From: an uncultured bacterium
GTDB taxonomy: Bacteria; Desulfobacterota; Deferrimicrobia; Deferrimicrobiales; Deferrimicrobiaceae
NCBI GenBank assembly: GCA_963829245.1
Contig: CAWHIM010000042.1
Location: 2,703 to 66,702 of the forward strand
Direction of reading: 5' to 3'
Length of the DNA stretch: 64,000 nucleotides
The translations under genes and the position numbers were made by a program. This document shows, piece by piece, positions 3,691-17,508 of the stretch. The notes under the pieces were generated by a model that was given only the letters and a program-made list of their open reading frames with translations, was not told the DNA's origin and made no database searches. The first letter of the stretch is position 1; each line of letters opens with the position of its first letter.

Positions 3691-3890
3691 TAGTGACGCC
3701 ATCCTGTCAAAGACATTTGCGGATTACGGGCGTTCGCATCACCCATGCCGGGTTGCGATTTCCTTACCCCTTCAACTTGCGGTACAGGGGAGAGAGCCTC
3801 GAACGGTAGATCTCCCGGATGGTTTCCTCATCGTCCACCTCTTTTCAAGAAAACCGCCCTCTTCGGTCGTCGGCGGTGAATTCCGGGGGA

Positions 3891-4842
3891 TCACCGGAGG
3901 ATCCCCCGGACGACGACATCCACCGCTTCCTCTTCCGTCAGTCCCCGGGCCATCAGCGTCTCGACCTGCTTCTTGTCCACGCTCCCGATGGCCGCCTCGT
4001 GCGTCAGTTTGGCGCGGTCGTCGGTCACGAGGAGCCTCGGGACGGCGCTGACGCGCGCATCCTTCCCCTTCACGATCTCCACGCAGTCGACGTGGCCCCT
4101 CGCACCCGGCGCGTTCCCGACCGCTTCCCCGACGACCTCGCTCACGCAATGGTCGGAGGCGACGATCCGGCTCTTCGCCAGTCCTCTCGCCTTCTCCCCG
4201 TTCAGGAACAGGGACTCCTTGACGCGGATCGCATCATTCTTTTTCCCGTAGACCCGGGCGTCCAGCTCGCAAGTGGCGTCCTTTCCGATGTCGGCCTCGT
4301 AGTCGATCCGCAGCTCCCCGGCCGCTCCCTGGACGAGTTTGAACAGGCTTCGGTAGGACCCTCCCTCGTCGATGGTGATCCTCGCCGTGGGCAACACCTC
4401 GACTCCGCCCTCTTCGCCGTGGTAATGCGTTTCCGAATATTCGAGAGCGGCATGTTTCCCCACGTGGATCCGCGCGTCCATCACGTGGCGGACCTTCACG
4501 GCGTTCGGGAACATGCAATGCGCGAGAAAGCTTGCTTTCGCGCCTTCCCCCACGAGGAATTCCGAGACGATCTCCTGCGTGCCTTCCTTCGGGAGGACGC
4601 CGAAGCACAGGTGGACCGGGTGCTCGACGTGGACCCCGGGATCGACCGTGATCTTCGCCCTGACGCCGGTCGGGGTCTCCTCTCCCTCGATGTGGACTCC
4701 GGGGGCGTCGTTGCTGCGAAGGATCCTCCGATGGCTCACCATCAGCCCGGCGATTTTTCCGTCGGAGAGTGACGGCCGGGTCGCCGCCGCTCGCCTCGTA
4801 CGCCTTGGACATCGCCAGGAATTCCTTCGTAGAGTCACTCAT
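3891..4842 (-). CDS. SufB/SufD family Fe-S cluster assembly protein (one apparent frameshift near 4750)
   Basis: SufBD-family sequence. N-terminus MSDSTKEFLAMSKAYEASGGDPAVTL overlaps the sufC stop (ATGA-type coupling), then the reading frame shifts. Confidence 0.7.
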
Positions 4843-5584
4843 GGAGCAGGACCTCCCCGGGAGGCGTGCTCCCATGGGGGCACTCCCGGCAATGGTTCTG
4901 GAAAAAGCGGCCGATGGCGAGGGGATCGCCGGTCTTCAGGATGGTGCCACCGCACAAGGAGGAAGCCCGGTCCGCCGATGCGGCGATTTCGTTCTGGTGG
5001 GTGATCAGGAGCACGGAGGCCCCGTTCTTCGCAAGGATTCGCACGGCGTCCAGAATCCGGTTCAGGGAGAGCGCGTCGATGCCGGAGTCCGGTTCGTCCA
5101 GGATGGAGAGCCTGGGGCCCATCGAGAGGATGGATGCCAGCTCTACGCGTTTCCGCTCCCCGCCGCTCAAGGTGGCGTCGACGGTTCGCTGGAGATACCT
5201 GTCCGGCGGAAGGCCCACCATGACGAGGCATTCGCCCGGAGAAGGGCCGCTGCCAGGAGAGCCGTGCCTTCCCAGTTCCAGGTATTCCCGGACCGTCAGG
5301 CCCTCGAACCGGGCGGGTTCCTGCCAGGCAAGGGTGATGCCTCGTTTCGCCCGATCCGAGATGGGCAAGGCGGTGATCTCCTCGCCCCAGAAGAAGACTT
5401 TCCCGGACGTCGGGGAAAACCCGGATAGGCCCATGATGACCGAGGAAAGGGTCGACTTGCCGGACCCGTTCATCCCGAGGATCGCGTGGATTTCCCCGGG
5501 GAGCACGTGCAGGTTGAGATCGTGAAGGATCGGTTTGCCCCCGACGGACATTCCGACGTCGATAAGGTCCAGCACGGAGATCAC
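4835..5584 (-). CDS. sufC: Fe-S cluster assembly ATPase SufC
   Basis: ABC ATPase with Walker A GMNGSGKST, signature LSGGERKR and D-loop ILDEPDSG; SufC-type N-terminus. Confidence 0.85.
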   Translation of the reverse strand: MISVLDLIDVGMSVGGKPILHDLNLHVLPGEIHAILGMNGSGKSTLSSVIMGLSGFSPTSGKVFFWGEEITALPISDRAKRGITLAWQEPARFEGLTVREYLELGRHGSPGSGPSPGECLVMVGLPPDRYLQRTVDATLSGGERKRVELASILSMGPRLSILDEPDSGIDALSLNRILDAVRILAKNGASVLLITHQNEIAASADRASSLCGGTILKTGDPLAIGRFFQNHCRECPHGSTPPGEVLLHE

Positions 5585-5634
5585 CGCCCCTCGGCGCTTC
5601 GGGAAATGGGATTCCCGTCAGCGGTTACTCGCCT

Positions 5635-5919
5635 TCAACCCTTCATCGCCTGCCGTGCGATCCGCTCCTTGATGAACGCCGAGAAAGCGGCCTCGTCGGG
5701 GAAGCGGATGGCACCTTCCGGGCACAGTTTTCCGCAGGTGCTGCACTCCACGACGCAGTTGTAAGGGTTTTTCACCCGGGACTTCCCGGCGGCTTCATCG
5801 AGCTCCAGGACGTCGTTCTTGCAGAAATCGACGCAGGTCCGGCACCCCGTGCACTGGTCCGGGTCGATCGTCGGGTACCATGGGATCTCCTCTCTCGGGA
5901 TCCCGCGCCAGGTCTTCAT
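5635..5919 (-). CDS. 2x[4Fe-4S] ferredoxin
   Basis: Two CxxCxxC..CP motifs (CTGCRTCVDFC, CVVECSTCGKLCP); 94 aa. Confidence 0.75.
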   Translation of the reverse strand: MKTWRGIPREEIPWYPTIDPDQCTGCRTCVDFCKNDVLELDEAAGKSRVKNPYNCVVECSTCGKLCPEGAIRFPDEAAFSAFIKERIARQAMKG

Positions 5920-5931
5920 GGCTGCCTCCGG

Positions 5932-6291
5932 TCAGGCGGCATTGGCGACCATCCCCTTGATCGCCTCGACGGCCTCTTCCGTGGTCTTGTTCCGGATGTC
6001 GAGAGGCACCATCCGGGACTTGTCGAACCCCGCGGCATCGAGCGCATCCCGGAACATCTTCTCCTGCATCCGCGGGTCGCACGCGGCGATGTACAGCCTG
6101 TCCGTATCCTTCCCCGCCAGCAGGACCTTGAGGAATTCCTCGCCGTCCCCGACGCAGAGCTGCGGGTGCAGGCACACGTAATCGAAGATCTTCTCCCTGC
6201 GGATATCGGAGAGCACATTCATGATGTCCATCTTCTTGAAGCTCGGGCAGGTCCCCTGGCAGTTGCAAAGAATGAATCCCTTCTTTCCCAT
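5932..6291 (-). CDS. small Cys-rich putative iron-sulfur protein (MvhD/FlpD-like?)
   Basis: 119 aa with FILCNCQGTCP and later Cys motifs loosely resembling the hydrogenase delta-subunit family; assignment tentative. Confidence 0.4.
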   Translation of the reverse strand: MGKKGFILCNCQGTCPSFKKMDIMNVLSDIRREKIFDYVCLHPQLCVGDGEEFLKVLLAGKDTDRLYIAACDPRMQEKMFRDALDAAGFDKSRMVPLDIRNKTTEEAVEAIKGMVANAA

Positions 6292-6463
6292 GGCGAACTC
6301 CTTTCTGCCCCATCAAACGTTATATCTGCATCCGTAGATATGATGCACGGGAAAGCGGAAAAGATCAACAATAATGCGACACGGAGTAATAGCGATGAGG
6401 CCCGAGGTAAGACGGAGGATTAGCGGGAATAAGTGTCTGAAAGGATTGGAGGAATATCGTCCG

Positions 6464-6934
6464 TTATCTTTCGTCCCCGTGGCCGAAGAGGACCTTCAGG
6501 CGGCGGTGGAGTTCGTCGCGGACGGATCGGAACGCATTGAGGCGGGTTTCTTCTGTTCCGGTGACGCACGCCGGGTCGGGAAGCCCCCAGTGGACACGGT
6601 GCGCCTTCCCGAGGAATACGGGGCAGACCTCCTCGGCGCAGAGGGTGATCACGGCGTCGACGGACCCGGCGTCGATGGAATCCAGCCCCTTGGATCGGTG
6701 ACCTGAGATGTCGATGCCGATCTCCTTGAGGACCTGGATCGCCTGCGGGCGGACAGGGGAGGGGGACGATCCGGCGGAAGAGACCGTTACCCCTTGAGAA
6801 GCGAGAGAGCGGGCGATCCCCTCGGCCATCTGGCTCCTCGCGGAGTTGGCGACGCAAAGGAACAGGATGTGTCGCGGCCGTTTCGCCTGGAGTTCCGCGG
6901 CCTCGGTCCTCCAGTCCGCGGGTCGAGCACTCAT
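6464..6934 (-). CDS. arsC: arsenate reductase, LMW protein-tyrosine-phosphatase (thioredoxin-coupled) type
   Basis: P-loop CVANSARS plus downstream Cys residues; start MSARP overlaps the arsR stop (ATGA); the long upstream ORF extension is an artefact. Confidence 0.85.
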   Translation of the reverse strand: MSARPADWRTEAAELQAKRPRHILFLCVANSARSQMAEGIARSLASQGVTVSSAGSSPSPVRPQAIQVLKEIGIDISGHRSKGLDSIDAGSVDAVITLCAEEVCPVFLGKAHRVHWGLPDPACVTGTEETRLNAFRSVRDELHRRLKVLFGHGDER

Positions 6935-7332
6935 CGCTTTGCCGCCGGACGCCGCCGGCCGGGCAGGGTCATCTTTCGCTCGCAGATCGCCATTGGGCCG
7001 ATCGACCTCGCCATTGCCGCCCGCTCCCGGTCTTTCGCGACGACCGGATCGTCGTTCAGCCAACTCCGGAGGTTCCGCAGCATACGTGTGGCATACGGGG
7101 AGTCGTTCCCGCGGTCCAACGAATAGTGGACCCATTTCCTGTCCCGCCGGTCCTTGATGAGTCCCGCTGCCCGGAGCAGGAAGAGGTGCTTCGACACGGT
7201 GGACTGCCCGAGGGAGAGGATCGCGATGACCTGGCAGACGCACATCTCCCCGCCTTCGAGGATCTTGAGGATCCGGACCCGGGTAGGGTCCGCGACGGCC
7301 TTCAAAACGGTCTCGTAATCGCGCAGTCCCAT
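6931..7332 (-). CDS. arsR: ArsR/SmtB family metalloregulator
   Basis: wHTH with metal-binding-site-like EMCVCQV; first gene of the arsR-arsC pair. Confidence 0.85.
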   Translation of the reverse strand: MGLRDYETVLKAVADPTRVRILKILEGGEMCVCQVIAILSLGQSTVSKHLFLLRAAGLIKDRRDRKWVHYSLDRGNDSPYATRMLRNLRSWLNDDPVVAKDRERAAMARSIGPMAICERKMTLPGRRRPAAKR

Positions 7333-7343
7333 CTGTCGTCTCC

Positions 7344-7369
7344 CATATCGTCAATGACCGAATTGAAAG
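7344..7369. promoter_or_regulatory. putative ArsR operator/promoter motif (copy upstream of arsR itself)
   Basis: catatcgtcaatgaccgaattgaaag: inverted repeat GTCAA-N8-TTGAA related to the other copies. Confidence 0.45.
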
Positions 7370-7439
7370 ATCGTCCCGCCGGAGCGACTATCCTTCACGA
7401 CTATCTTACACGTTCCCTTATTCGCCGGGCAAGGAGGCA

Positions 7440-7553
7440 GATACGGCCGTAGTCGGACCGCCGGAGGAAGGAAATGGCCGCGAAGGCGACACCCGGTTCG
7501 CGCCTTCCCGACACGGCCGCGAGAGGCGCCAAGCCCACCGTTACGATGACCAT
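7440..7553 (-). pseudogene. remnant 5' end of a TauE/SafE-like gene (duplicate of 12091-12474)
   Basis: Encodes ..TMVIVTVGLAPLAAVSG.., matching METIIVVTAGL.. of the full copy; homology is lost after ~35 codons. Confidence 0.45.
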
Positions 7554-7578
7554 GGTATCCACGGCATCCTCATCCCTT

Positions 7579-7633
7579 TGACATATCGTCATTTAACGAA
7601 TTGACATTATAGGGCGCGGGATAAATAATATCC
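7579..7633 (+). promoter_or_regulatory. operator/promoter cassette copy 1 (TTGACA -35 at 7601-7606, AT-rich -10)
   Basis: tgacatatcgtcatttaacgaattgacattatagggcgcgggataaataatat, near-identical to the copies at 12493 and 13629. Confidence 0.5.
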
Positions 7634-7754
7634 ACCAGCCTGATATTTCTTGAAACGGTAATTCGGGCGCCCTGAGAATCGGAATGTGTTTGCACCTGCC
7701 CACTCGTCCTGGAATCCGGAAGATCCGCCGGGATTCCGGTATGAAACGTAAGGT

Positions 7755-7900
7755 GTGACCCTCGCGCCCCACAGGATTCTTGCGATATTTGCTCATCCGG
7801 ACGACGAAACATTCATGGCCGGAGTGTCCCTGACGAAGTATGCGGATGCCGGTTGGGAGTATCCGTGCTTTGCGCGACGCACGGCGAGGCCGGACGTCGA
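7755..7900 (+). pseudogene. truncated, frameshifted 5' fragment of a PIG-L family deacetylase gene (duplicate of 12678-13385)
   Basis: RILAIFAHPDDETFMAG..LTKYADAGWE matches the intact paralog; a 1-nt deletion then shifts frame and homology ends by ~7900. Confidence 0.55.
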
Positions 7901-8012
7901 GGAGACTCCAACCGTGCAGGGGAGAACATCTTCCGTGTCCCATTGGTGTCCACATTTCTCATATGGAAGTTGTTCGGGGGAAAGACAGGCAAAACAATAA
8001 TTATAGTATATA

Positions 8013-8024
8013 CAGCATATGCTG
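8013..8024. promoter_or_regulatory. perfect 12-bp palindrome CAGCATATGCTG in an AT-rich island upstream of the Cys-rich AbrB-like gene
   Basis: Self-complementary 12-mer inside a ~70-bp AT-rich tract (7990-8045) in an otherwise ~68% GC window. Confidence 0.4.
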
Positions 8025-8073
8025 ATGTTTCAGCAATAGGTGCACAGCATGATTACGGGGGAGGGGAGGAGAG

Positions 8074-8358
8074 ATGGACAAGAAGACAAAAAGCGTTTCC
8101 TGCTGCGGACCGACGGGGAAAAGCTTCGCAGGCTGCCGGGTCGAATCCCTTATTGCGGTCGACGACCGTGGGCAGATGGTGCTTCCCAAGGACCTGCGGG
8201 TCAAGGCAAACATCAAGGGGGGCGACAAACTTGCTGTGATCACCTGGGAGAAGGAGGGGAAGGTGTGCTGCCTCTCGCTGATCAAGGCCGAGGAGTTCGG
8301 CGGAATGATCAAGGGACTGATCGGGCCGTTGATGGGTGACGTGCTCAAGAATATCTGA
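8074..8358 (+). CDS. AbrB/MazE/SpoVT-type DNA-binding protein with Cys-rich N-terminal extension (vicinal CC pairs)
   Basis: C-terminal swapped-hairpin motif DDRGQMVLPKDLRVKANIKGGDKLAV; N-terminus SCCGPTGKSFAGC plus a later VCC pair; GGGAGG RBS; ends 14 nt before arsM. Confidence 0.6.
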   Translation: MDKKTKSVSCCGPTGKSFAGCRVESLIAVDDRGQMVLPKDLRVKANIKGGDKLAVITWEKEGKVCCLSLIKAEEFGGMIKGLIGPLMGDVLKNI

Positions 8359-8371
8359 AGGAGGGATGGAG

Positions 8372-9199
8372 ATGAAAGCTGAAGATATTTTGAAATACGT
8401 GAGGGATCGATATGCCGGCATCGCGAAACAGGAAGGGTCCTGCTGCGGCCCATCCGCATGCTGCGGCGCCCCCGAGGCGGCGGAAGAAGCGAGTGGCCGG
8501 ATCGGTTATACGGAAGGGGAAATGAAATCGGCACCCCGGGAGTCCAACTTGGGACTCGGCTGCGGCAACCCGACAGCGCTTGCTTCCCTGCGGGCAGGGG
8601 AGACCGTTCTGGACCTGGGCTCGGGAGCGGGCTTCGACTGCTTCCTGGCGGCGGGACAGGTCGGTCACGGAGGGAAAGTCATTGGCGTCGACATGACCGC
8701 GGAGATGATTCAAAAGGCCCGCGAGAACGCCCGAAAGGGCAACCATGAAAACGTCGAATTCCGGTTGGGGGAGATCGAGCATCTGCCGGCTGCCAATGAC
8801 TCCGTGGACATCGTCATCTCCAACTGCGTCATCAACCTTTCTCCGGCCAAGGACAAGGTTTTCGCCGAGGCCTACCGGGTTCTCAAGCGGGGAGGCAGGG
8901 CAATGATCTCGGACATCGTCCTTTCCGGGGATCTGCCGGAAGCTGTTGCCGGTTCCCTGGCCGCTTATGCCGGATGCATCGCCGGGGCGATCCGGGAGGA
9001 AAAATACCTTTGCCTTATGGAAGCAGCGGGGTTCCAAGACGTCCATGTCGTCCAGGAGAGCCGATTTGAAATCGCGGAAATCGAGATTGACGCGTATGCC
9101 TCGAGCATTGCAGGGAATTTCAACATCCTTCCGGAAGCGGTCCGGGAAGCAGCCAGGTCAGTTTTGAGTGTGCAAGTCTTCGGGAGAAAGCCGTCGTAG
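8372..9199 (+). CDS. arsM: arsenite S-adenosylmethionine methyltransferase
   Basis: N-terminal Cys cluster CCGPSACCG, class I SAM-MTase motif LDLGSGAG, downstream conserved Cys residues; AAGGAGGG RBS. Confidence 0.85.
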   Translation: MKAEDILKYVRDRYAGIAKQEGSCCGPSACCGAPEAAEEASGRIGYTEGEMKSAPRESNLGLGCGNPTALASLRAGETVLDLGSGAGFDCFLAAGQVGHGGKVIGVDMTAEMIQKARENARKGNHENVEFRLGEIEHLPAANDSVDIVISNCVINLSPAKDKVFAEAYRVLKRGGRAMISDIVLSGDLPEAVAGSLAAYAGCIAGAIREEKYLCLMEAAGFQDVHVVQESRFEIAEIEIDAYASSIAGNFNILPEAVREAARSVLSVQVFGRKPS

Positions 9200-9209
9200 G
9201 AGGATGCCT

Positions 9210-9600
9210 TGATGTACGGCAAGAGATCTTTCCAGGAGAACTACGAGAGGTACCAGCCGGGGATCCTTTGATTCCTGTCTCGCCTTGTGGGCGAGGAGGA
9301 GACCGGAGACGTGGCTCTCCGGGTGGATCGGGGGCCTGAATATGGTCCTGTGGCGCCGTCCAGGCGAAGTCATCCATCATTCCGACCAAGGGTGCCAGTA
9401 CCTCGGGTCGGCGCGGAAGCCGCGGCGTGGCTGGAAAGGGAAGCCAGGAGTTTCACCGAGTTCCTCTTCCTGCACCGGGCGGTGCCCGCGGAAGTGGGAG
9501 CCACCCTGGCGGACGGAGGGATTCATGCCGAGGGAATCATGGAGACGATGGATGGAGAGATCCTGCAGATCGCGGTCCGGAAATATTTTCGCTGACGTCA
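9210..9600 (+). mobile_element. degenerate IS3-family transposase (OrfB/rve) remnant, multiply frameshifted
   Basis: Fragments VIHHSDQGCQY (DDE-integrase HSDRGSQY motif) and MET..GEILQIAVRKYFR (MESFFGTLK..RKYF-like C-terminus) lie in different frames. Confidence 0.55.
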
Positions 9601-9622
9601 GAACATACGGGAGGAAAGAGAG

Positions 9623-10521
9623 ATGGGCATCAACAGACGGAACTTCCTGAAGGTCGCGGGGGCGGCCGGCAGCATGCTGCTCGCGGGGGGGGCCAAGTCG
9701 GCCTGGACCGCGCAGACCCCGGGAGGAAGTGTCGAGTTCTACGGGATCCTCATCGATACGACCAAGTGCATCGGCTGCCGCGCTTGCGAGGAGGCGTGCA
9801 ACGCACAGAACAGTCTGCCCAAGCCGGAAGTTTCCTTTTCCAGCGAGAGCGTGTTCGAGAAGAAAAGGGAGACGACCCCGGACGCCTTCGTTGTCGTCAA
9901 TCGGTTCCCGAACGGGAAGAGCCCGGAGAAGCCGATCTTCGTCCGGAGACAGTGCATGCATTGCACCGAGCCTTCCTGCGCCTCGGCCTGCCTGTGCAAG
10001 GCGATGGAGAAGATGCCCGAAGGACCGACCGTCTACCACAAGGACCGCTGCATGGGATGCCGATATTGCATGATTTCGTGCCCCTTCGATATCCCGAAGT
10101 TCGAATACAACAGCCCTACCCCGTACGTGAAGAAGTGCATCGGATGCCCCGATCGCGTGGCGAAGGGTGAACAGACCGCGTGCGCGGAAGCCTGTCCCGA
10201 GGGTGCGACCCTGTTCGGAAAGCGGAGGGATCTGATCGAGGAAGCCAAGAAAAGGATCTACCAGAACCCGGAACGGTACTACCCGCACATCTACGGCGAA
10301 CATGAAGTCGGGGGAACGGGCTACATGTACCTCTCGGCCGTCCCGTTCGAAAAGTCGGCTTCCGGACCGACCTGGGGACGAAGAATTACCCGGAACTGAC
10401 GTCCGGATTCCTGTCCTCCGTTCCTCTCGTGGACATCCTCTGGCCGGCGGTCCTGTTCGGCTTCAGCTACCTCATTTCCGACAAGGAAGAAGACGGGAAG
10501 GAGAACAACCATGAAAAGTAA
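9623..10521 (+). CDS. Tat-secreted 4Fe-4S ferredoxin-type subunit (NrfC/HybA/DsrO-like), one frameshift near 10375
   Basis: RRNFLK twin-arginine signal, four Cys clusters; C-terminal TM anchor (..ILWPAVLFGFSYLISDKEE..) only in the +1 frame; ATGA-type overlap with next gene. Confidence 0.8.
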
Positions 10522-11818
10522 CATCAAGCCGATGCCCATCCCCGGCATGCCGGACGCGATGGACACGGGTACCCTGAAGGGGTTCCTGCGGTTCCTCTGG
10601 CAGGAGCTGAAACCAAAGGGGAAGGTCCTGACGCCGTTCAATATCATCACCGGGATCATCATCCTGGGCGGGATCATCCTCATCGGCATCCGGCTCGTCA
10701 AGGGGCTCGGCGCCGTGACGAACCTCTCCCAGACGTATCCCTGGGGGATCTGGATCGGCTTCGACGTCGTGACGGGCGTCGCCTTCGCCGGAGGCGCGTA
10801 CATCCTGACCTTTGCCGTACACATCCTGAAGGTCAAGAAGTACGAGCCGATCGTGCGGGCAACCGTGCTGAACGGTTTTCTGGCCTACGTCTTCTACAGC
10901 GGCGCCCTCCTGCTCGACCTGGGACGCCCCTGGAACGTCGTCAACCCCATCATCGGGAACGCCTTCGGGTACGGGTCGGTGCTCTTCCTGGTCGCCTGGC
11001 ATTTCCTCCTGTACACACTGTGCCTGTTCGTCGAGGTCTCCCCCGCGATCGCCGAGTGGCTGAAATGGGTCAAGGCGCGGCGGATCATCGAGAAGATGAC
11101 CACCGCCACCGTCATCCTGGGCGTGACGCTGTCGACGCTGCACCAGGCGGGGCTGGGCGCCTTGTTCCTCACGGCGCCATCCAAGATCCATCCCCTCTGG
11201 TACTCGAGCAACATCCCGGTCCTGTTCTTCATCTCGAGCATGTTCGCGGGGTTTTCGTTGATCATCATCGAGAGCATGTTCACGCACAAGATCTTCTCCG
11301 ACCGGCTCGACGAATCCCATCGGGCGTCGCACAACAAGATCCTCCTCGGCCTCGCGAAGGGGTCGGCCAGCGTCATGGCCGCCTACCTGTTCCTGAAAGT
11401 GATCGACCTGACGCACGGCCATCATCTGGGGTTGCTCCTCACCCCGATGGGGCTCTGGTATCTGGTCGAGGTCGCCGGGTTCACCCTGCTCCCTCTCGTT
11501 CTTTACGTCGTCGCCATCCGGCAGCAAAGCGTAAGGCTCGTCCAGATCACCGCGTTCCTCACGGCCTTCGGCGTGATCCTGAACCGGATGAACATCTCCG
11601 TGATCGCGTTCAAGTGGTACGAGGCGGTTCGGTATTACCCGTCCTGGATGGAGATCTGGATCACGCTCGCGGTCATCAGCATGGAACTCTGGGTGTTCCA
11701 GTGGGTCATCAACCGGATGCCGATCCTCGGAGCGGACCCGGCCTTCAAGTCGGAAGAGAAAACCGTAAACAACCTTAATGATGGGGAGGTAGTGCAATGG
11801 AAGGTTTCAGACACATAG
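10511..11818 (+). CDS. NrfD/PsrC/HybB-family polytopic membrane subunit
   Basis: 435 aa, ~10 TM helices, NrfD-family pattern; translationally coupled to the upstream FeS subunit. Confidence 0.85.
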   Translation: MKSNIKPMPIPGMPDAMDTGTLKGFLRFLWQELKPKGKVLTPFNIITGIIILGGIILIGIRLVKGLGAVTNLSQTYPWGIWIGFDVVTGVAFAGGAYILTFAVHILKVKKYEPIVRATVLNGFLAYVFYSGALLLDLGRPWNVVNPIIGNAFGYGSVLFLVAWHFLLYTLCLFVEVSPAIAEWLKWVKARRIIEKMTTATVILGVTLSTLHQAGLGALFLTAPSKIHPLWYSSNIPVLFFISSMFAGFSLIIIESMFTHKIFSDRLDESHRASHNKILLGLAKGSASVMAAYLFLKVIDLTHGHHLGLLLTPMGLWYLVEVAGFTLLPLVLYVVAIRQQSVRLVQITAFLTAFGVILNRMNISVIAFKWYEAVRYYPSWMEIWITLAVISMELWVFQWVINRMPILGADPAFKSEEKTVNNLNDGEVVQWKVSDT

Positions 11819-11939
11819 ACACTTACATGGGCAGGTCCCTTCGCCGAAAGTATTTAAGCTGGGCCCATGCAGGAGGATTGCCGTTTTTGCCGTCCGCAAC
11901 GCGATGATGGAAGGGGGCTTTCAAGTTTTCTTATATCGC

Positions 11940-12052
11940 CAATTCTCGAAACGGGCCACATGGCCGAGAGTGGGGCCATGGTCGCCATGCGGAAGTTTAC
12001 CGAGGATATAATGTCGAACCAACCGGCGAATGAAACCAATGATGGAGATTGA
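11940..12052 (+). pseudogene. 3' fragment of an AhpD-like carboxymuconolactone-decarboxylase-family gene (duplicate of the 13422-13631 3' end)
   Basis: ETGHMAESGAMVAMRKFTEDIMS matches ETGHMVEKGAMAAMRKFTDDVLS of the intact copy; the N-terminal part is absent. Confidence 0.5.
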
Positions 12053-12090
12053 GCGGCAATCTGAATGTCTTGATCATGCCGCAGGCCGGT

Positions 12091-12474
12091 TTACCGCAAG
12101 AGGGTCCATATTTTGTATAAGGTCATGATGACGATGAGGACGCCGAACAGCTGCTTGATCCGTGCGCTCGGCATGTAAAGGCTGGTGATGCGGGCGCCGG
12201 CGAACGAGCCGGCCGCTCCGGCGACCAGGAGCACCACCGTCAGGGTCGGATCGAAGTGCGCGGTCGCCACGTGGGGAATGAGGGAAGCCAAACACCGAGA
12301 AAAGGGCGGTTACGCCATTCAGGAGAAGGCTCAGGGGCTGCACCTGGTGCACCAGGTCGGGGAGGAAACAGTCCGAGGAAGGGAATGGCCGCGAAGGCGA
12401 CCCCCAGCCCGAGCATGCCGGATACGACGGCAGAACAGGGTCAAGCCGGCCGTGACAACGATGATCGTTTCCAT
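12091..12474 (-). CDS. TauE/SafE (DUF81)-like small membrane protein, apparently frameshifted
   Basis: N-terminus METIIVVTAGL.. and C-terminal TM region ..AGAAGSFAGARITSLYMP..LFGVLIVIMTLY lie in different frames. Confidence 0.5.
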
Positions 12475-12830
12475 GGCGTCCTCCCGCTACGTTGATCATA
12501 TCGCTCAAATAACGAATTGACATTATAGCGCGTCGGATAAATAATATCCACCAGCTTGAATTTGTATGAAACAGGAAACCGGGAGCAGGGAGGATCGGAA
12601 TGCGTTTGCGCCTGACCACTCGTCCTGGAATCCCGGAGATCCTCCGGGATTCCAATATGAAGCGGAAAGTGTGACCCGTGTCTTACAGGATTCTTGCGAT
12701 ATTCGCGCATCCAGACGATGAGACGTTCCTTGCCGGAGGAACCTTGACGAAGTATGCGGATGCCGGGTGGGAGGTGTCCGTGCTTTGCGCGACGCGCGGC
12801 GAGGCCGGACGGCGGGGAGAATACGGAAAG
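12371..12830. repeat. segmental duplication copy B (intact side)
   Basis: Pairs with 7456-7900. Confidence 0.6.
12493..12550 (+). promoter_or_regulatory. operator/promoter cassette copy 2 driving the PIG-L / AhpD-like genes
   Basis: tgatcatatcgctcaaataacgaattgacattatagcgcgtcggataaataatat; TTGACA at 12517-12522. Confidence 0.5.
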
Positions 12831-13385
12831 GATAATATTTCCGCCGGGGAATTCGCACTGGTACGACAGCGGGAGATGGAGGATGCCTGCCGTGTCCTCG
12901 GTGTGGGAAAACCGCTCTTCCTGAAATGCGCCGACGGGGGAGTCGCGAAGGATTGCCGGGACTCCGCGACGACGGAAATTGTCCGGTTCCTCCGCAAATG
13001 GAAGCCGGACGTGGTCATCACGTTCGGCCCGGATGGCGTCTCGGGCCACACCGATCACGTGGCGATCGGCGGGATCGCGACCGTTGCGGCACGGGAAGCC
13101 GGGGTCCGTTCCTTGTACTATGTGTTGCGGTCCGAATCGCTGTCGACGTGCTGCAAACCCGAGGTTCCGGTTTCATCTCCTCCCGTGACGACGGTGATCG
13201 ACGTGAGCGGTTTTGGAGAGCGCAAACTCCGGGCCATGCGCTGTTACAGAAGCCAGAAGCACCTGCTGTCGGAGGACCCGGCCGTGATCAGGGACACGGT
13301 AAACGGGCGGGAGCACTTCCACCGTGCGCTTCCGGCCGGATTCACCGCGGGACGCGAAGATCATCTGTTCGTTCCGTTTTCCTGA
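12678..13385 (+). CDS. PIG-L/LmbE family N-acetylglucosaminyl deacetylase (MshB/BshB-like)
   Basis: AHPDDE zinc-binding motif, HxDH motif (GHTDHVA); 235 aa intact. Confidence 0.8.
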   Translation: MSYRILAIFAHPDDETFLAGGTLTKYADAGWEVSVLCATRGEAGRRGEYGKDNISAGEFALVRQREMEDACRVLGVGKPLFLKCADGGVAKDCRDSATTEIVRFLRKWKPDVVITFGPDGVSGHTDHVAIGGIATVAAREAGVRSLYYVLRSESLSTCCKPEVPVSSPPVTTVIDVSGFGERKLRAMRCYRSQKHLLSEDPAVIRDTVNGREHFHRALPAGFTAGREDHLFVPFS

Positions 13386-13421
13386 GCGCAAGGAACAGAA
13401 CGGGAAAGGAAGGTAATACAT

Positions 13422-13631
13422 ATGGATGAACGCACCAAAGAACTGATCGCAATCGGCGCATCCGTGGGCGCCCACTGCCAGCCGTGCCTCACCTGGCATA
13501 TGAAGAAAGCGCGTGAACTGGGGATCGACGACGAGACGATCCGGGCCGCGATCGAAACGGGCCACATGGTCGAGAAAGGCGCCATGGCCGCCATGCGGAA
13601 GTTTACCGACGATGTCTTGTCCGGTAAATGA
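13422..13631 (+). CDS. carboxymuconolactone decarboxylase (AhpD-like) family protein with CxxC
   Basis: 69 aa; AhpD-core signature AHCQPCLTWH. Confidence 0.7.
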   Translation: MDERTKELIAIGASVGAHCQPCLTWHMKKARELGIDDETIRAAIETGHMVEKGAMAAMRKFTDDVLSGK

Positions 13632-13680
13632 CATATCGTCAAATAACGAATTGACAAATACGCATCGAAGGAACGATAAT
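13629..13680 (+). promoter_or_regulatory. operator/promoter cassette copy 3 upstream of arsD (TTGACA 13651-13656, GATAAT 13675-13680, 18-nt spacer)
   Basis: tgacatatcgtcaaataacgaattgacaaatacgcatcgaaggaacgataat; inverted repeat GTCAA-N8-TTGAC overlapping the -35. Confidence 0.55.
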
Positions 13681-13738
13681 ACGCTTTGCGTATATCTTAT
13701 GAGTACTTATCCGGATTCTCCGGGCAAGGAGGCAGATC

Positions 13739-14038
13739 TTGAGGAAGCTGGAAATCTACGAGCCGCCGTTGTGCTGTCCCACCGGGGTGTGCGGGCCGGC
13801 GCCCGATCCCGCCCTGGCGAAGCTCCAGGAGGACATCCTTCGGTGGAAGAAGGCGGGCGTCGTCGTCGAGCGGCTTGCGATCAACCAGGTCCCGCAGCGG
13901 TTCATGTCGAATCCGGCGGTGGTCGACCTGCTGACCCGCGAGGGGCAGGAGGTCCTGCCGATCGCCCTGCTCGACGGGAAAGTCGTCTGCAAGGGGAAAT
14001 ACCCGACGTACGACCAGGTCACCCGGGAGGGGATGTAG
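13739..14038 (+). CDS. arsD: arsenical metallochaperone/repressor ArsD
   Basis: PPLCCPTGVCG motif and ..LDGKVV..GKYPT ArsD fold; TTG start 6 nt after AGGAGG. Confidence 0.85.
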   Translation: MRKLEIYEPPLCCPTGVCGPAPDPALAKLQEDILRWKKAGVVVERLAINQVPQRFMSNPAVVDLLTREGQEVLPIALLDGKVVCKGKYPTYDQVTREGM

Positions 14039-14266
14039 ATGCCGACCTACGCATACCTGTGCCGCGCCTGCGGCCGTCCGTTCGAGATGCGGATGTCCAT
14101 CCGGGAGAAAGAACGTGGAAGCCCCGCTGTCCGGTGTGCGGCAGCGCGAAGGTGGAGCAGCAGCTCTTCGGCTTCTCCTTCGGTGGGGCGGGGGCGGAGC
14201 ACCCGCCCCGGGCGGGTGATGCCCCCCCGGCCGCGGCGGTCGCTGCGGGTGAAAAGCCGGTGGTGA
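14039..14266 (+). CDS. FmdB-family zinc-ribbon protein (frameshifted, end uncertain)
   Basis: MPTYAYLCRACGRPFEMRMSIREKE, then in the +1 frame ..CPVCGSAKVEQQLFGFSFGG; two CxxC knuckles typical of the FmdB zinc ribbon. Confidence 0.5.
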   Translation: MPTYAYLCRACGRPFEMRMSIREKERGSPAVRCAAARRWSSSSSASPSVGRGRSTRPGRVMPPRPRRSLRVKSRW

Positions 14267-16392: not shown

Positions 16393-16407
16393 GCGGTTCT
16401 CCGTCCT

Positions 16408-17487
<1,080 letters not shown>

Positions 17488-17508
17488 GGGGCAAGAAGAA
17501 AAGCCGGC

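Follow-up and report, generated by a model that had tools for sequence, protein, structure and literature searches.

An apparent degenerate second copy of an accessory module, refilled with arsM and nrfCD genes, in the arsenic island of an uncultured Deferrimicrobiaceae bacterium

The arsenic resistance (ars) island of an uncultured Deferrimicrobiaceae bacterium (contig CAWHIM010000042.1 of GenBank assembly GCA_963829245.1) carries, between arsR and arsD, repeated segments, broken genes, and a block with arsM and nrfC-nrfD, which raises the question of how, and in what order, these parts came to lie together. The whole stretch of 64,000 nucleotides that was analyzed (contig positions 2,703 to 66,702) is referred to as the window, and all positions are given in its coordinates. 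An earlier note, made from the letters of the window, had proposed that recombination reshaped the island and left gene remnants behind, and this general view was borne out. Judged from the comparison with related contigs, the 4.6 kb of extra DNA in the window reads as a degenerate second copy of an accessory module, the interior of which appears to have been replaced by a patchwork of other genes. Our preferred history, to which a probability of about 0.5 was assigned, is a tandem duplication in place, after which the left copy would have decayed and then been refilled with the arsM and nrfCD patchwork.

The repeats were identified by a self-comparison, in which positions 6900-14100 were searched with BLAST against the whole window. 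Positions 7464-7905 matched 12375-12820 with an identity of 80.0% over 449 columns, including 10 gap columns (E 6.5e-106), and positions 11946-12015 matched 13552-13621 without gaps at 87% identity (E 6e-18). In both pairs, strand and order agreed between the two copies. A third alignment of 106 nt joined 7344-7442 and 13632-13737 at 70% identity (E 2e-4), and it included the arsD leader, ATTC[G/T]CCGGGCAAGGAGGCAGAT, which occurred at 7420-7442 and 13715-13737 with 22 of 23 positions identical. Additionally, an operator-like box of about 28 nt, TGACATATCGTCAnnTAACGAATTGACA, was found at 7579-7606, 12495-12522 (with one indel), and 13629-13656, and a weaker version at 7341-7368. The repeats are real and far above the chance level, and no extra copies of them were found by self-BLAST elsewhere in the window. 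Two partial direct copies of one promoter-bearing unit are hence present, as the earlier note had claimed, and the copy of the arsD leader and ribosome-binding site (RBS) that it placed at 7425-7442 was recovered. Its description of 7456-7900 as a duplicate of 12371-12830 was right about the repeat but not about a 1-nt deletion as the only length difference, as that deletion, in the PIG-L part, is one of several gaps.

The conserved backbone on both sides of the repeats includes the following genes:

6464-6907, minus strand: arsC (a Pfam-scanned ars cluster gene)
6931-7332, minus strand: arsR (133 aa), the left edge of the conserved backbone (Pfam HTH_5, E 2.8e-16; 87-91% to all relatives)
13739-14038, plus strand: arsD, the first gene of the backbone on the right (Pfam ArsD, E 7.7e-31; 90-92% to relatives), followed by a Zn-ribbon gene, arsA, acr3, and arsP in this order

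Related contigs were reached through close PIG-L protein homologs (83-98% identical), and they included ten contigs (L002-L011) and a near-identical one (L001). Each of the ten contigs contained one module, located between arsR and arsD, and a tandem copy was found in none. The complete module, found in L002, L003, L004, L007, L009, and L010, consists of a CCG protein gene (absent from L009, L010, and L011), a leftward TauE gene, a divergent promoter with the box, and rightward genes for PIG-L/LmbE, a CFA-synthase-like methyltransferase, and an AhpD-like CMD. The methyltransferase of the relatives is a protein of 448 aa (PF02353, S-adenosylmethionine-dependent class, with DUF7884). In L004 and L007, for example, arsC-arsR is followed by the CCG protein gene, an intact TauE gene (246 aa) facing away from the box, the PIG-L, methyltransferase, and CMD genes, a box with leader, and then arsD, the Zn-ribbon gene, arsA, and acr3. 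TauE was already reduced to a stump of 40-45 aa in L002 and L003, and in L008 a single-copy module had lost the methyltransferase gene. The module spans L004:7638-12413, L007:7495-12272, and L009:9133-12347, and its reduced form in the window is 12094-13631; it stands behind the same operator-like box as arsD, and its CCG protein is GlpC/CCG-like with 466 aa.

The arsD leader was also doubled in the relatives, with one copy beside arsR and the other before arsD. The arsR-side copy was observed in L002, L003, L004, L007, L008, L009, L010, and L011, and the leader at 7420-7442 is ancestral to the clade, since the relatives all carry it beside arsR; it is the mark of an old event in which the accessory module was inserted between arsR and arsD. 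The leader was correctly taken as a sign of reshaping in the earlier note, but its presence in every relative points to an older, clade-wide event rather than one specific to this genome. The cargo that follows the arsR-side leader varied: a CCG gene in L004 and L007, two unknown genes in L003, an open reading frame (ORF) of 125 aa in L008, and none in L002 and L009. The comparison with relatives lacking the insert, which had been suggested as a check, gave a clear boundary. The alignments of all relatives to the window, at 85-92%, broke off at 7436-7442 and resumed at 12076, while the 4.6 kb from 7443 to approximately 12050 were found only in the window and L001 among the contigs compared. 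The arsM and nrfCD DNA is accordingly a later addition that the relatives lack, as had been claimed.

The remains of the left copy, preceded by the arsR-side leader, were identified on both sides of this addition:

7341-7442, plus strand: arsR-side copy of the operator-like box, followed by a promoter that has decayed and by an orphan arsD leader/RBS (left-flank alignments of the relatives end at 7436-7442)
7443-7463, no strand: probable remnant of the TauE 3' flank, which follows the leader in the register seen in L002, L009, L010, and L011
7464-7578, minus strand: TauE 5' stump, approximately the first 33 codons (tblastn with residues 1-33 of L004 TauE, 70%)
7579-7640, no strand: left operator-like box TGACATATCGTCATTTAACGAATTGACA with face-to-face divergent promoters (motif and promoter scans)
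7641-7754, plus strand: 5' untranslated region of PIG-L in the left copy; its hairpin at 7711-7737 is imperfect (alignment to the right copy)
7755-7940, plus strand: PIG-L/LmbE 5' stump (nucleotide homology to 7905, protein trace to about 7937)
11915-12022, plus strand: AhpD-like CMD 3' stump, with which the left copy ends (blastn 87% at 11946-12015; tblastn with L004 CMD residues 49-84)
12023-12072, no strand: new junction of the CMD stump to the TauE 3' flank (no matched source)

The relic at 7443-7463, of possibly 16-20 nt, shared 12 of 20 positions in a fixed register with L002 and with L009, a weak match (binomial P about 0.005-0.02). The 1-nt deletion in the PIG-L stump lies in GGTTGGGA-GTATCC at 7851-7864, where the right copy reads GGGTGGGAGGTGTCC at 12765-12779, and it is common to L001, which was 100% identical over 7443-7960. 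The CMD stump is located about 70 nt from the TauE stop codon at 12091-12093, which agrees with the AhpD-like 3' fragment near the TauE 3' end reported earlier at 11940-12052; the protein match extends back to 11915. Two candidate origins of the joint were considered over 12010-12076 and rejected. Neither a decayed operator/leader, as left by unequal crossing-over between leaders, nor a CCG-TauE spacer of the L004 type aligned better than shuffled sequences, and an initial impression that the right TauE flank was L004-like was dropped.

The right copy, still in use, is the resident module:

12094-12500, minus strand: resident TauE pseudogene (alignment to intact L004 TauE; tblastn pieces in three frames)
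12495-12556, no strand: right operator-like box with divergent promoters (self-BLAST and promoter scan)
12678-13385, plus strand: resident PIG-L/LmbE-family deacetylase, 235 aa (Pfam PIG-L, E 4e-34)
13386-13421, no strand: scar of the missing 448-aa methyltransferase gene (comparison with relatives)
13422-13631, plus strand: resident AhpD-like CMD, 69 aa, with a CxxC motif (Pfam CMD, E 1.9e-10; TIGR00778)
13629-13737, plus strand: arsD-side operator-like box (13629-13656), promoter, and leader/RBS (TTGACA-18-GATAAT at 13651-13680)

The resident TauE has an internal deletion of 360 nt at 12283 in addition to small indels. The methyltransferase loss is recurrent, as L008 lost the same gene with a different left endpoint, and TauE shrank independently in L002, L003, and the left copy of the window. 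The two genes thus appear, from these alignments, to undergo repeated loss among these genomes. In our reading of the L003 alignment, the endpoints of its TauE deletion fall at similar short sequences in the 3' and 5' parts of the gene.

The arrangement of junctions fits a tandem duplication, because both outer joints are ancestral and a single joint is new. The left copy retains the ancestral left joint, in which the leader is followed by 4 nt and the TauE flank in the register of L002 and L009; positions 3841-7905 were covered by one BLAST alignment to L002, and megablast stopped at 7442. The right copy retains the ancestral right joint of CMD, box, leader, and arsD, and the sole new joint connects the end of one unit to the start of the next at 12023-12072. 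A neighbor-joining tree of the 456 shared columns grouped the two copies as sisters with a bootstrap of 72%, the left one on a long branch. Lineage-specific changes numbered 38 in the left copy and 20 in the right, compared with 4 and 3 in the 62-nt box and promoter core, where the left copy thus resembled the orthologous ones, and these counts fit a relaxed constraint on the stumps together with a constraint retained on the promoter.

The DNA between the left-copy stumps is a patchwork composed of at least three unrelated pieces, with the following features:

7985-8073, plus strand: upstream region of the arsM unit, with a -10-like TATAGT at 8002-8011 and a weakened -35 (homology to L172 from 8002)
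8074-8358, plus strand: HgcC-family AbrB-type DNA-binding protein, 94 aa (NCBIfam NF040962 at 115.9 bits, cut-off 70; weak Pfam MazE_antitoxin)
8366-9199, plus strand: arsM, arsenite methyltransferase (NCBIfam NF008823 at 340.9 bits, cut-off 263; Pfam Methyltransf_31)
9227-9334, plus strand: ECF sigma-70 gene 5' stump (blastn 78% over 91 nt; tblastn 57.5% over 40 aa, E 2e-8)
9333-9403, plus strand: IS3-family transposase-like fragment of about 23 aa, GLNMVLWRRPGEVIHHSDQGCQY, matched at 9333-9401 (NF033516, E 0.0016)
9404-9595, plus strand: GcvH-like gene 3' stump, the last 63 codons (tblastn with residues 163-225 of the L094 protein, 87%; Pfam GCV_H on the L094 protein)
9623-10518, plus strand: nrfC-like 4Fe-4S protein with a twin-arginine translocation signal, split by a window-specific 1-nt deletion at about 10355
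10511-11818, plus strand: nrfD-like membrane subunit (Pfam NrfD; homology to native loci ends at 11821)

The foreign part spans approximately 7940-11914 and lies within the left copy, not between two copies at 7960-12370 as the earlier note had it, and 12076-12500 belongs to the resident TauE pseudogene. The sigma stump carries an in-frame stop, and its counterpart is the next gene after arsM in L172. The nrfC-nrfD segment (9623-11821) had 92-94% nucleotide identity to the native loci of L092, L094, and L012, where the order is gcvH-like, gcvH-like, nrfC, nrfD, and gcvH-like. In every nrfCD relative, the homology began exactly at 9404 and stopped at 11805-11821; contigs related to the nrfD piece are labeled Candidatus Deferrimicrobiaceae or Deltaproteobacteria metagenome-assembled genomes (MAGs). 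By homology, the nrfCD piece was copied from a conserved Deferrimicrobiaceae chromosomal locus. An IS3-family remnant had been reported at 9210-9600; a weakly IS3-like match was found at 9333-9401, and the rest of that interval is the ECF sigma 5' stump and the GcvH-like 3' stump. The NF033516 match covered 23 aa at profile positions 264-288 and scored 17.7 bits against a cut-off of 160. With tblastn, the fragment retrieved mostly annotated IS3 transposases, every one with an E of at least 2e-3, and no Pfam match was found on this ORF.

A second insertion sequence (IS) copy of a composite transposon was absent, with no transposase-sized ORF in 7443-12050, and no integrase of an integron was found among the Pfam-scanned ars cluster genes of 6464-14038 (ArsC, ArsR, AbrB-like, ArsM, NrfC, NrfD, PIG-L, CMD, and ArsD). 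The direct repeats consist of promoter and leader sequence and are not attC-like. A search of a plasmid collection with the 6.3-kb block matched only the arsM core at 68-72%, so that a plasmid origin is without evidence.

Taken together, the rearrangements of the island are best described as four layers, centered on a single regulatory element that recurs, the box overlapping a strong -35/-10 promoter. The oldest layer, directly visible in the relatives and ancestral to the clade, is an accessory module that separates arsR from arsD and has a copy of the box, promoter, and arsD leader on either side. The second layer would be a tandem duplication of the module in the lineage shared by the window and L001, from an ancestor without the CCG gene, and this duplication would have created the junction of the CMD 3' end to the TauE 3' flank at 12023-12072. 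In the third layer, for which the origins of the pieces are seen in homologous loci and the mechanism is conjectural, the left copy would have been freed from selection on its coding parts: its TauE gene would have been cut to 33 codons, and a patchwork would have replaced the copy from PIG-L codon 50-60 or so to the middle of CMD. Here, the unit of the HgcC-like gene, arsM, and the sigma stump would have been joined to the piece of gcvH stump, nrfC, and nrfD through the leftover of an IS3-family element. As the two pieces meet at this leftover, an IS-associated deletion would be the likely joiner. The fourth layer, visible in the alignments, is the loss of 360 nt of TauE and of the whole methyltransferase gene from the downstream copy.

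Several observations weigh against this order of events. The two copies are 80% identical and no closer than the lineages are to each other in this rapidly evolving segment (74-85%; 15-26% differences). Exclusive shared sites numbered four between left and right and three between left and L009, and the sisterhood of the copies is weakly supported for this reason. About 50 nt at the joint 12023-12072 matched no tested source, as local alignments did not surpass those of shuffles (p 0.06-0.86). The IS3 signal is a match of 23 aa with an E of about 1e-3, and it was accompanied neither by a target duplication nor, in a repeat scan, by inverted repeats flanking 9200-9620. No intermediate genome was found with either a duplicated module without patchwork or a single module with it. 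Finally, single-base indels in the window make fine-scale arguments from reading frames unsafe.

The quality of the assembly was assessed from L001, a contig of 6305 bp from an independent sample that matched the window over 7443-13737 at 98.2% with the same arrangement. Window-private 1-nt indels, counted against at least two relatives, were found in sufBD (~4772), nrfC (10355), arsA (~15062 and 16104), and acr3 (~16725 and 17434), and nrfC is intact in L001. The split arsA, acr3, nrfC, and sufBD genes are therefore probably long-read assembly errors rather than real pseudogenes, and single-base frame arguments in the window are trustworthy only where L001 agrees, as for the deletion in the PIG-L stump. 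Mis-assembly of the arrangement itself is unlikely, because L001 spans every internal junction, the outer left joint excepted. The first base of L001 (7443) directly follows the left 23-nt leader repeat, its last base (13737) is also the last of the right repeat, and no terminal overlap of its ends was found. That both ends should meet the leader repeats by coincidence is very unlikely. The match suggests that the 6.3-kb block between the leaders acts as a discrete unit in the assembly graph of that sample. The block could be a present/absent, excisable, or amplified unit in the L001 population, or the assembler could have broken the contig at the leader repeat.

Among the alternatives to duplication in place, an import is the most serious, although we consider it less likely. 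The left copy with its patchwork would have formed in another Deferrimicrobiaceae lineage, in which a single module was disrupted by arsM and nrfCD, and entered by recombination just upstream of the resident module, with a homologous anchor at the arsR-leader side and an illegitimate joint at the other. Homology-facilitated illegitimate recombination occurs in natural transformation, and the window resembles it in that the extra DNA abuts the arsR-leader anchor on one side and lacks homology on the other, as an illegitimate end would. The TauE 3' end and the arsR-side leader enclose varied cargo, which suggests a recurrent entry point, and the left copy is about equidistant (72-80%) from every sampled lineage, the right copy included. 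This distance is explained without a foreign origin by the higher number of unique changes in the left coding stumps, and the tree prefers the two copies as sisters. The G+C content of the 7-14 kb stretch, 58-60%, is below the surrounding 64-70%, but it is equally low in the resident right copy. The window differs from the known process in that no donor allele was found: the donor type was absent among 171 fetched loci, and among the 160 loci fetched with NrfD neither a donor nor an intermediate allele occurred, the close matches all being native gcvH-nrfCD loci without arsM.

A broader proposal is that the element of box, promoter, and arsD leader serves as a portable homology anchor for the gain, loss, and amplification of gene blocks between arsR and arsD. 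The accessory block of the relatives, bracketed by two leader copies and with lineage-specific cargo after the arsR-side one, fits this idea, as do the ends of L001 at the two leader repeats, but we regard it as improbable. If true, this family would enlarge its ars islands by stacking promoter-anchored cassettes, with no dedicated recombinase.

The history in the earlier note, an ancestral tandem array of [promoter-PIG-L-AhpD-promoter] with the arsM/NrfC-NrfD block (7960-12370) inserted between partial copies, is unlikely. It accounts for the two direct copies that flank the arsM and nrfCD DNA and for the box with promoter found both after CMD and before PIG-L. However, the ten related contigs contain no tandem array but a single copy of a larger unit, which also has TauE and the 448-aa methyltransferase gene. 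The stumps that flank the insert are a PIG-L 5' end and a CMD 3' end, which means that the interior of the left copy was replaced, and not that two units were separated. In addition, 12076-12370 is resident TauE, and the block consists of three pieces of different origin. A chimeric or collapsed assembly, which the earlier note had raised for the repeats and which would here involve co-occurring strains, is very improbable: the window-specific indels do point to an error-prone assembly and the outer left junction 7442/7443 lies outside L001, but L001, a different strain at 98.2% from another sample, spans 7905-7985, 9199-9404, 11821-12072, 12283, and 13386-13421, the 20% divergence of the copies is too large for an assembler to collapse or confuse, and the gene stumps end at real homology breaks common to both assemblies.

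Returning to the duplication in place, its parts have known counterparts. Decay of one copy after a tandem segmental duplication is general in bacterial genome evolution, and the window shows two direct copies, one new end-to-start joint, single-copy relatives, and one copy with deletions, frameshifts, and about twice the substitutions. In contrast to the usual case, the copies in the window are old (80%), the decayed copy keeps its promoter and operator core, and it was refilled with foreign genes. IS-mediated gene capture with adjacent deletion is known in metal and arsenic resistance islands, including with the IS3 family. Similarly, two unrelated blocks cut inside genes (ECF sigma 5' and gcvH-like 3') abut a transposase-like fragment here, but the window has about 70 nt (23 aa) of IS3-like sequence and lacks terminal inverted repeats, a second IS copy, and a target-site duplication. 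To specialists, the locus is a new example of familiar island evolution, an ordinary kind of genome event that holds no surprise. It provides a base-level history of an arsenic island gaining arsenite methylation and an NrfCD-type module in an uncultured soil or sediment lineage, in which duplication of a regulated module, coding decay, promoter/operator retention, and IS-associated gene patching would be combined. It also corrects annotation traps, as the TauE, PIG-L, CMD, ECF sigma, and GcvH-like ORFs within 7400-12500 are stumps.

The retained regulatory core bears on the expression of the added genes. The three strong box copies each overlap a TTGACA -35 and include an imperfect dyad, TATCGT-N6-ACGAAT; the box had zero chance matches in 100 shuffles and is conserved in at least eight genomes. 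Plus-strand promoters of the form TTGACA-17-AATAAT were found at 7601-7629 and 12517-12545, and these and the site at 13651-13680 each agree with the consensus in 11 of 12 positions. Divergent minus-strand promoters, TGGATA-17-TATAAT, were located at 7634-7606 and 12550-12522. In total, the region contained 11 promoter-like sites compared with 2.2 expected from shuffles, and no terminator-like site was found on the plus strand in 7200-14100. As the left promoter at 7601-7629 is intact and no terminator-like site occurs down to nrfD, arsenite-responsive transcription could read into the HgcC-like gene, arsM, and nrfCD. The box is presumably bound by the adjacent ArsR. Control of ars operons by ArsR/SmtB-type repressors at operators is well established, for example for the ArsR of R773, and the window is similar in having an HTH_5 ArsR gene beside the promoters and the same box with a dyad before each transcription unit. 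It differs in that its box is unlike characterized ArsR operators and also heads the accessory PIG-L/CMD module. The arsM and nrfCD genes may then be under the presumed ArsR control through the left promoter, a case of promoter capture, which would predict an arsenite-inducible arsM and is relevant to how arsenic is methylated in anoxic soils.

The gene before arsM belongs to a large and well-conserved family, with 937 homologs found for its protein. An AbrB/PrlF/MazE-like gene upstream of hgcA has been described as a putative regulator (PMC10349881). The 94-aa protein of the window resembles HgcC in scoring above the NF040962 cut-off and differs in being encoded upstream of arsM rather than hgcAB. 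Indeed, no hgcAB was found beside it in the region, and the HgcC-like gene was directly 5' of arsM in three contexts (the window, L001:632-916, and L172:8001-8285). Its cysteines include a CC pair close to the N-terminus, one isolated C ten residues further on, and another CC near residue 65. Between the -10-like box of the arsM unit and the start codon of the HgcC-like gene is a perfect 12-nt palindrome, CAGCATATGCTG, at 8013-8024. The palindrome may be an operator, and it is not conserved in L172.

The 5' untranslated region of the resident PIG-L gene includes a hairpin at 12627-12653 with a 12-bp perfect stem and a 3-nt loop, GGAATCCCGGAG-ATC-CTCCGGGATTCC, to which RNA folding adds a G-U pair for a total of 13 bp; its left counterpart at 7711-7737 is imperfect. 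An Rfam scan of 7000-14200 gave no match to a known RNA family, and the folding energy of this untranslated region was not better overall than that of shuffles (z -1 to -1.7). Farther downstream, the acr3 region at 16395-17491 had no nucleotide alignment with L002:15083-16202, while it was about 91% identical to L007, L008, and L009. As its flanks align with all four of these contigs, this suggests an allele replacement within the island.

In the native nrfC-nrfD locus (L094:4668-8994), the two genes are flanked by genes for three membrane-anchored GcvH-like proteins of 225-236 aa with the lipoyl-carrier fold, and no gene for a catalytic subunit adjoins them. The corresponding window segment, 9404-11840, includes the last 63 codons of one gcvH-like gene and the first few codons of another. 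An extra 0.9 kb between gcvH and nrfC in L093 was considered as an IS at the same spot, and this was rejected because it is a duplicated gcvH-like gene. This locus (L093:5085-6022, MAG MFD02199.bin.2.95) is a second nrfCD locus, 99.8% identical to L092, and its extra gcvH-like copy lies between the two occurrences of an approximately 50-nt direct repeat, GGAGATCCTGCAG...GACGTCGGAT, at both ends of the extract.

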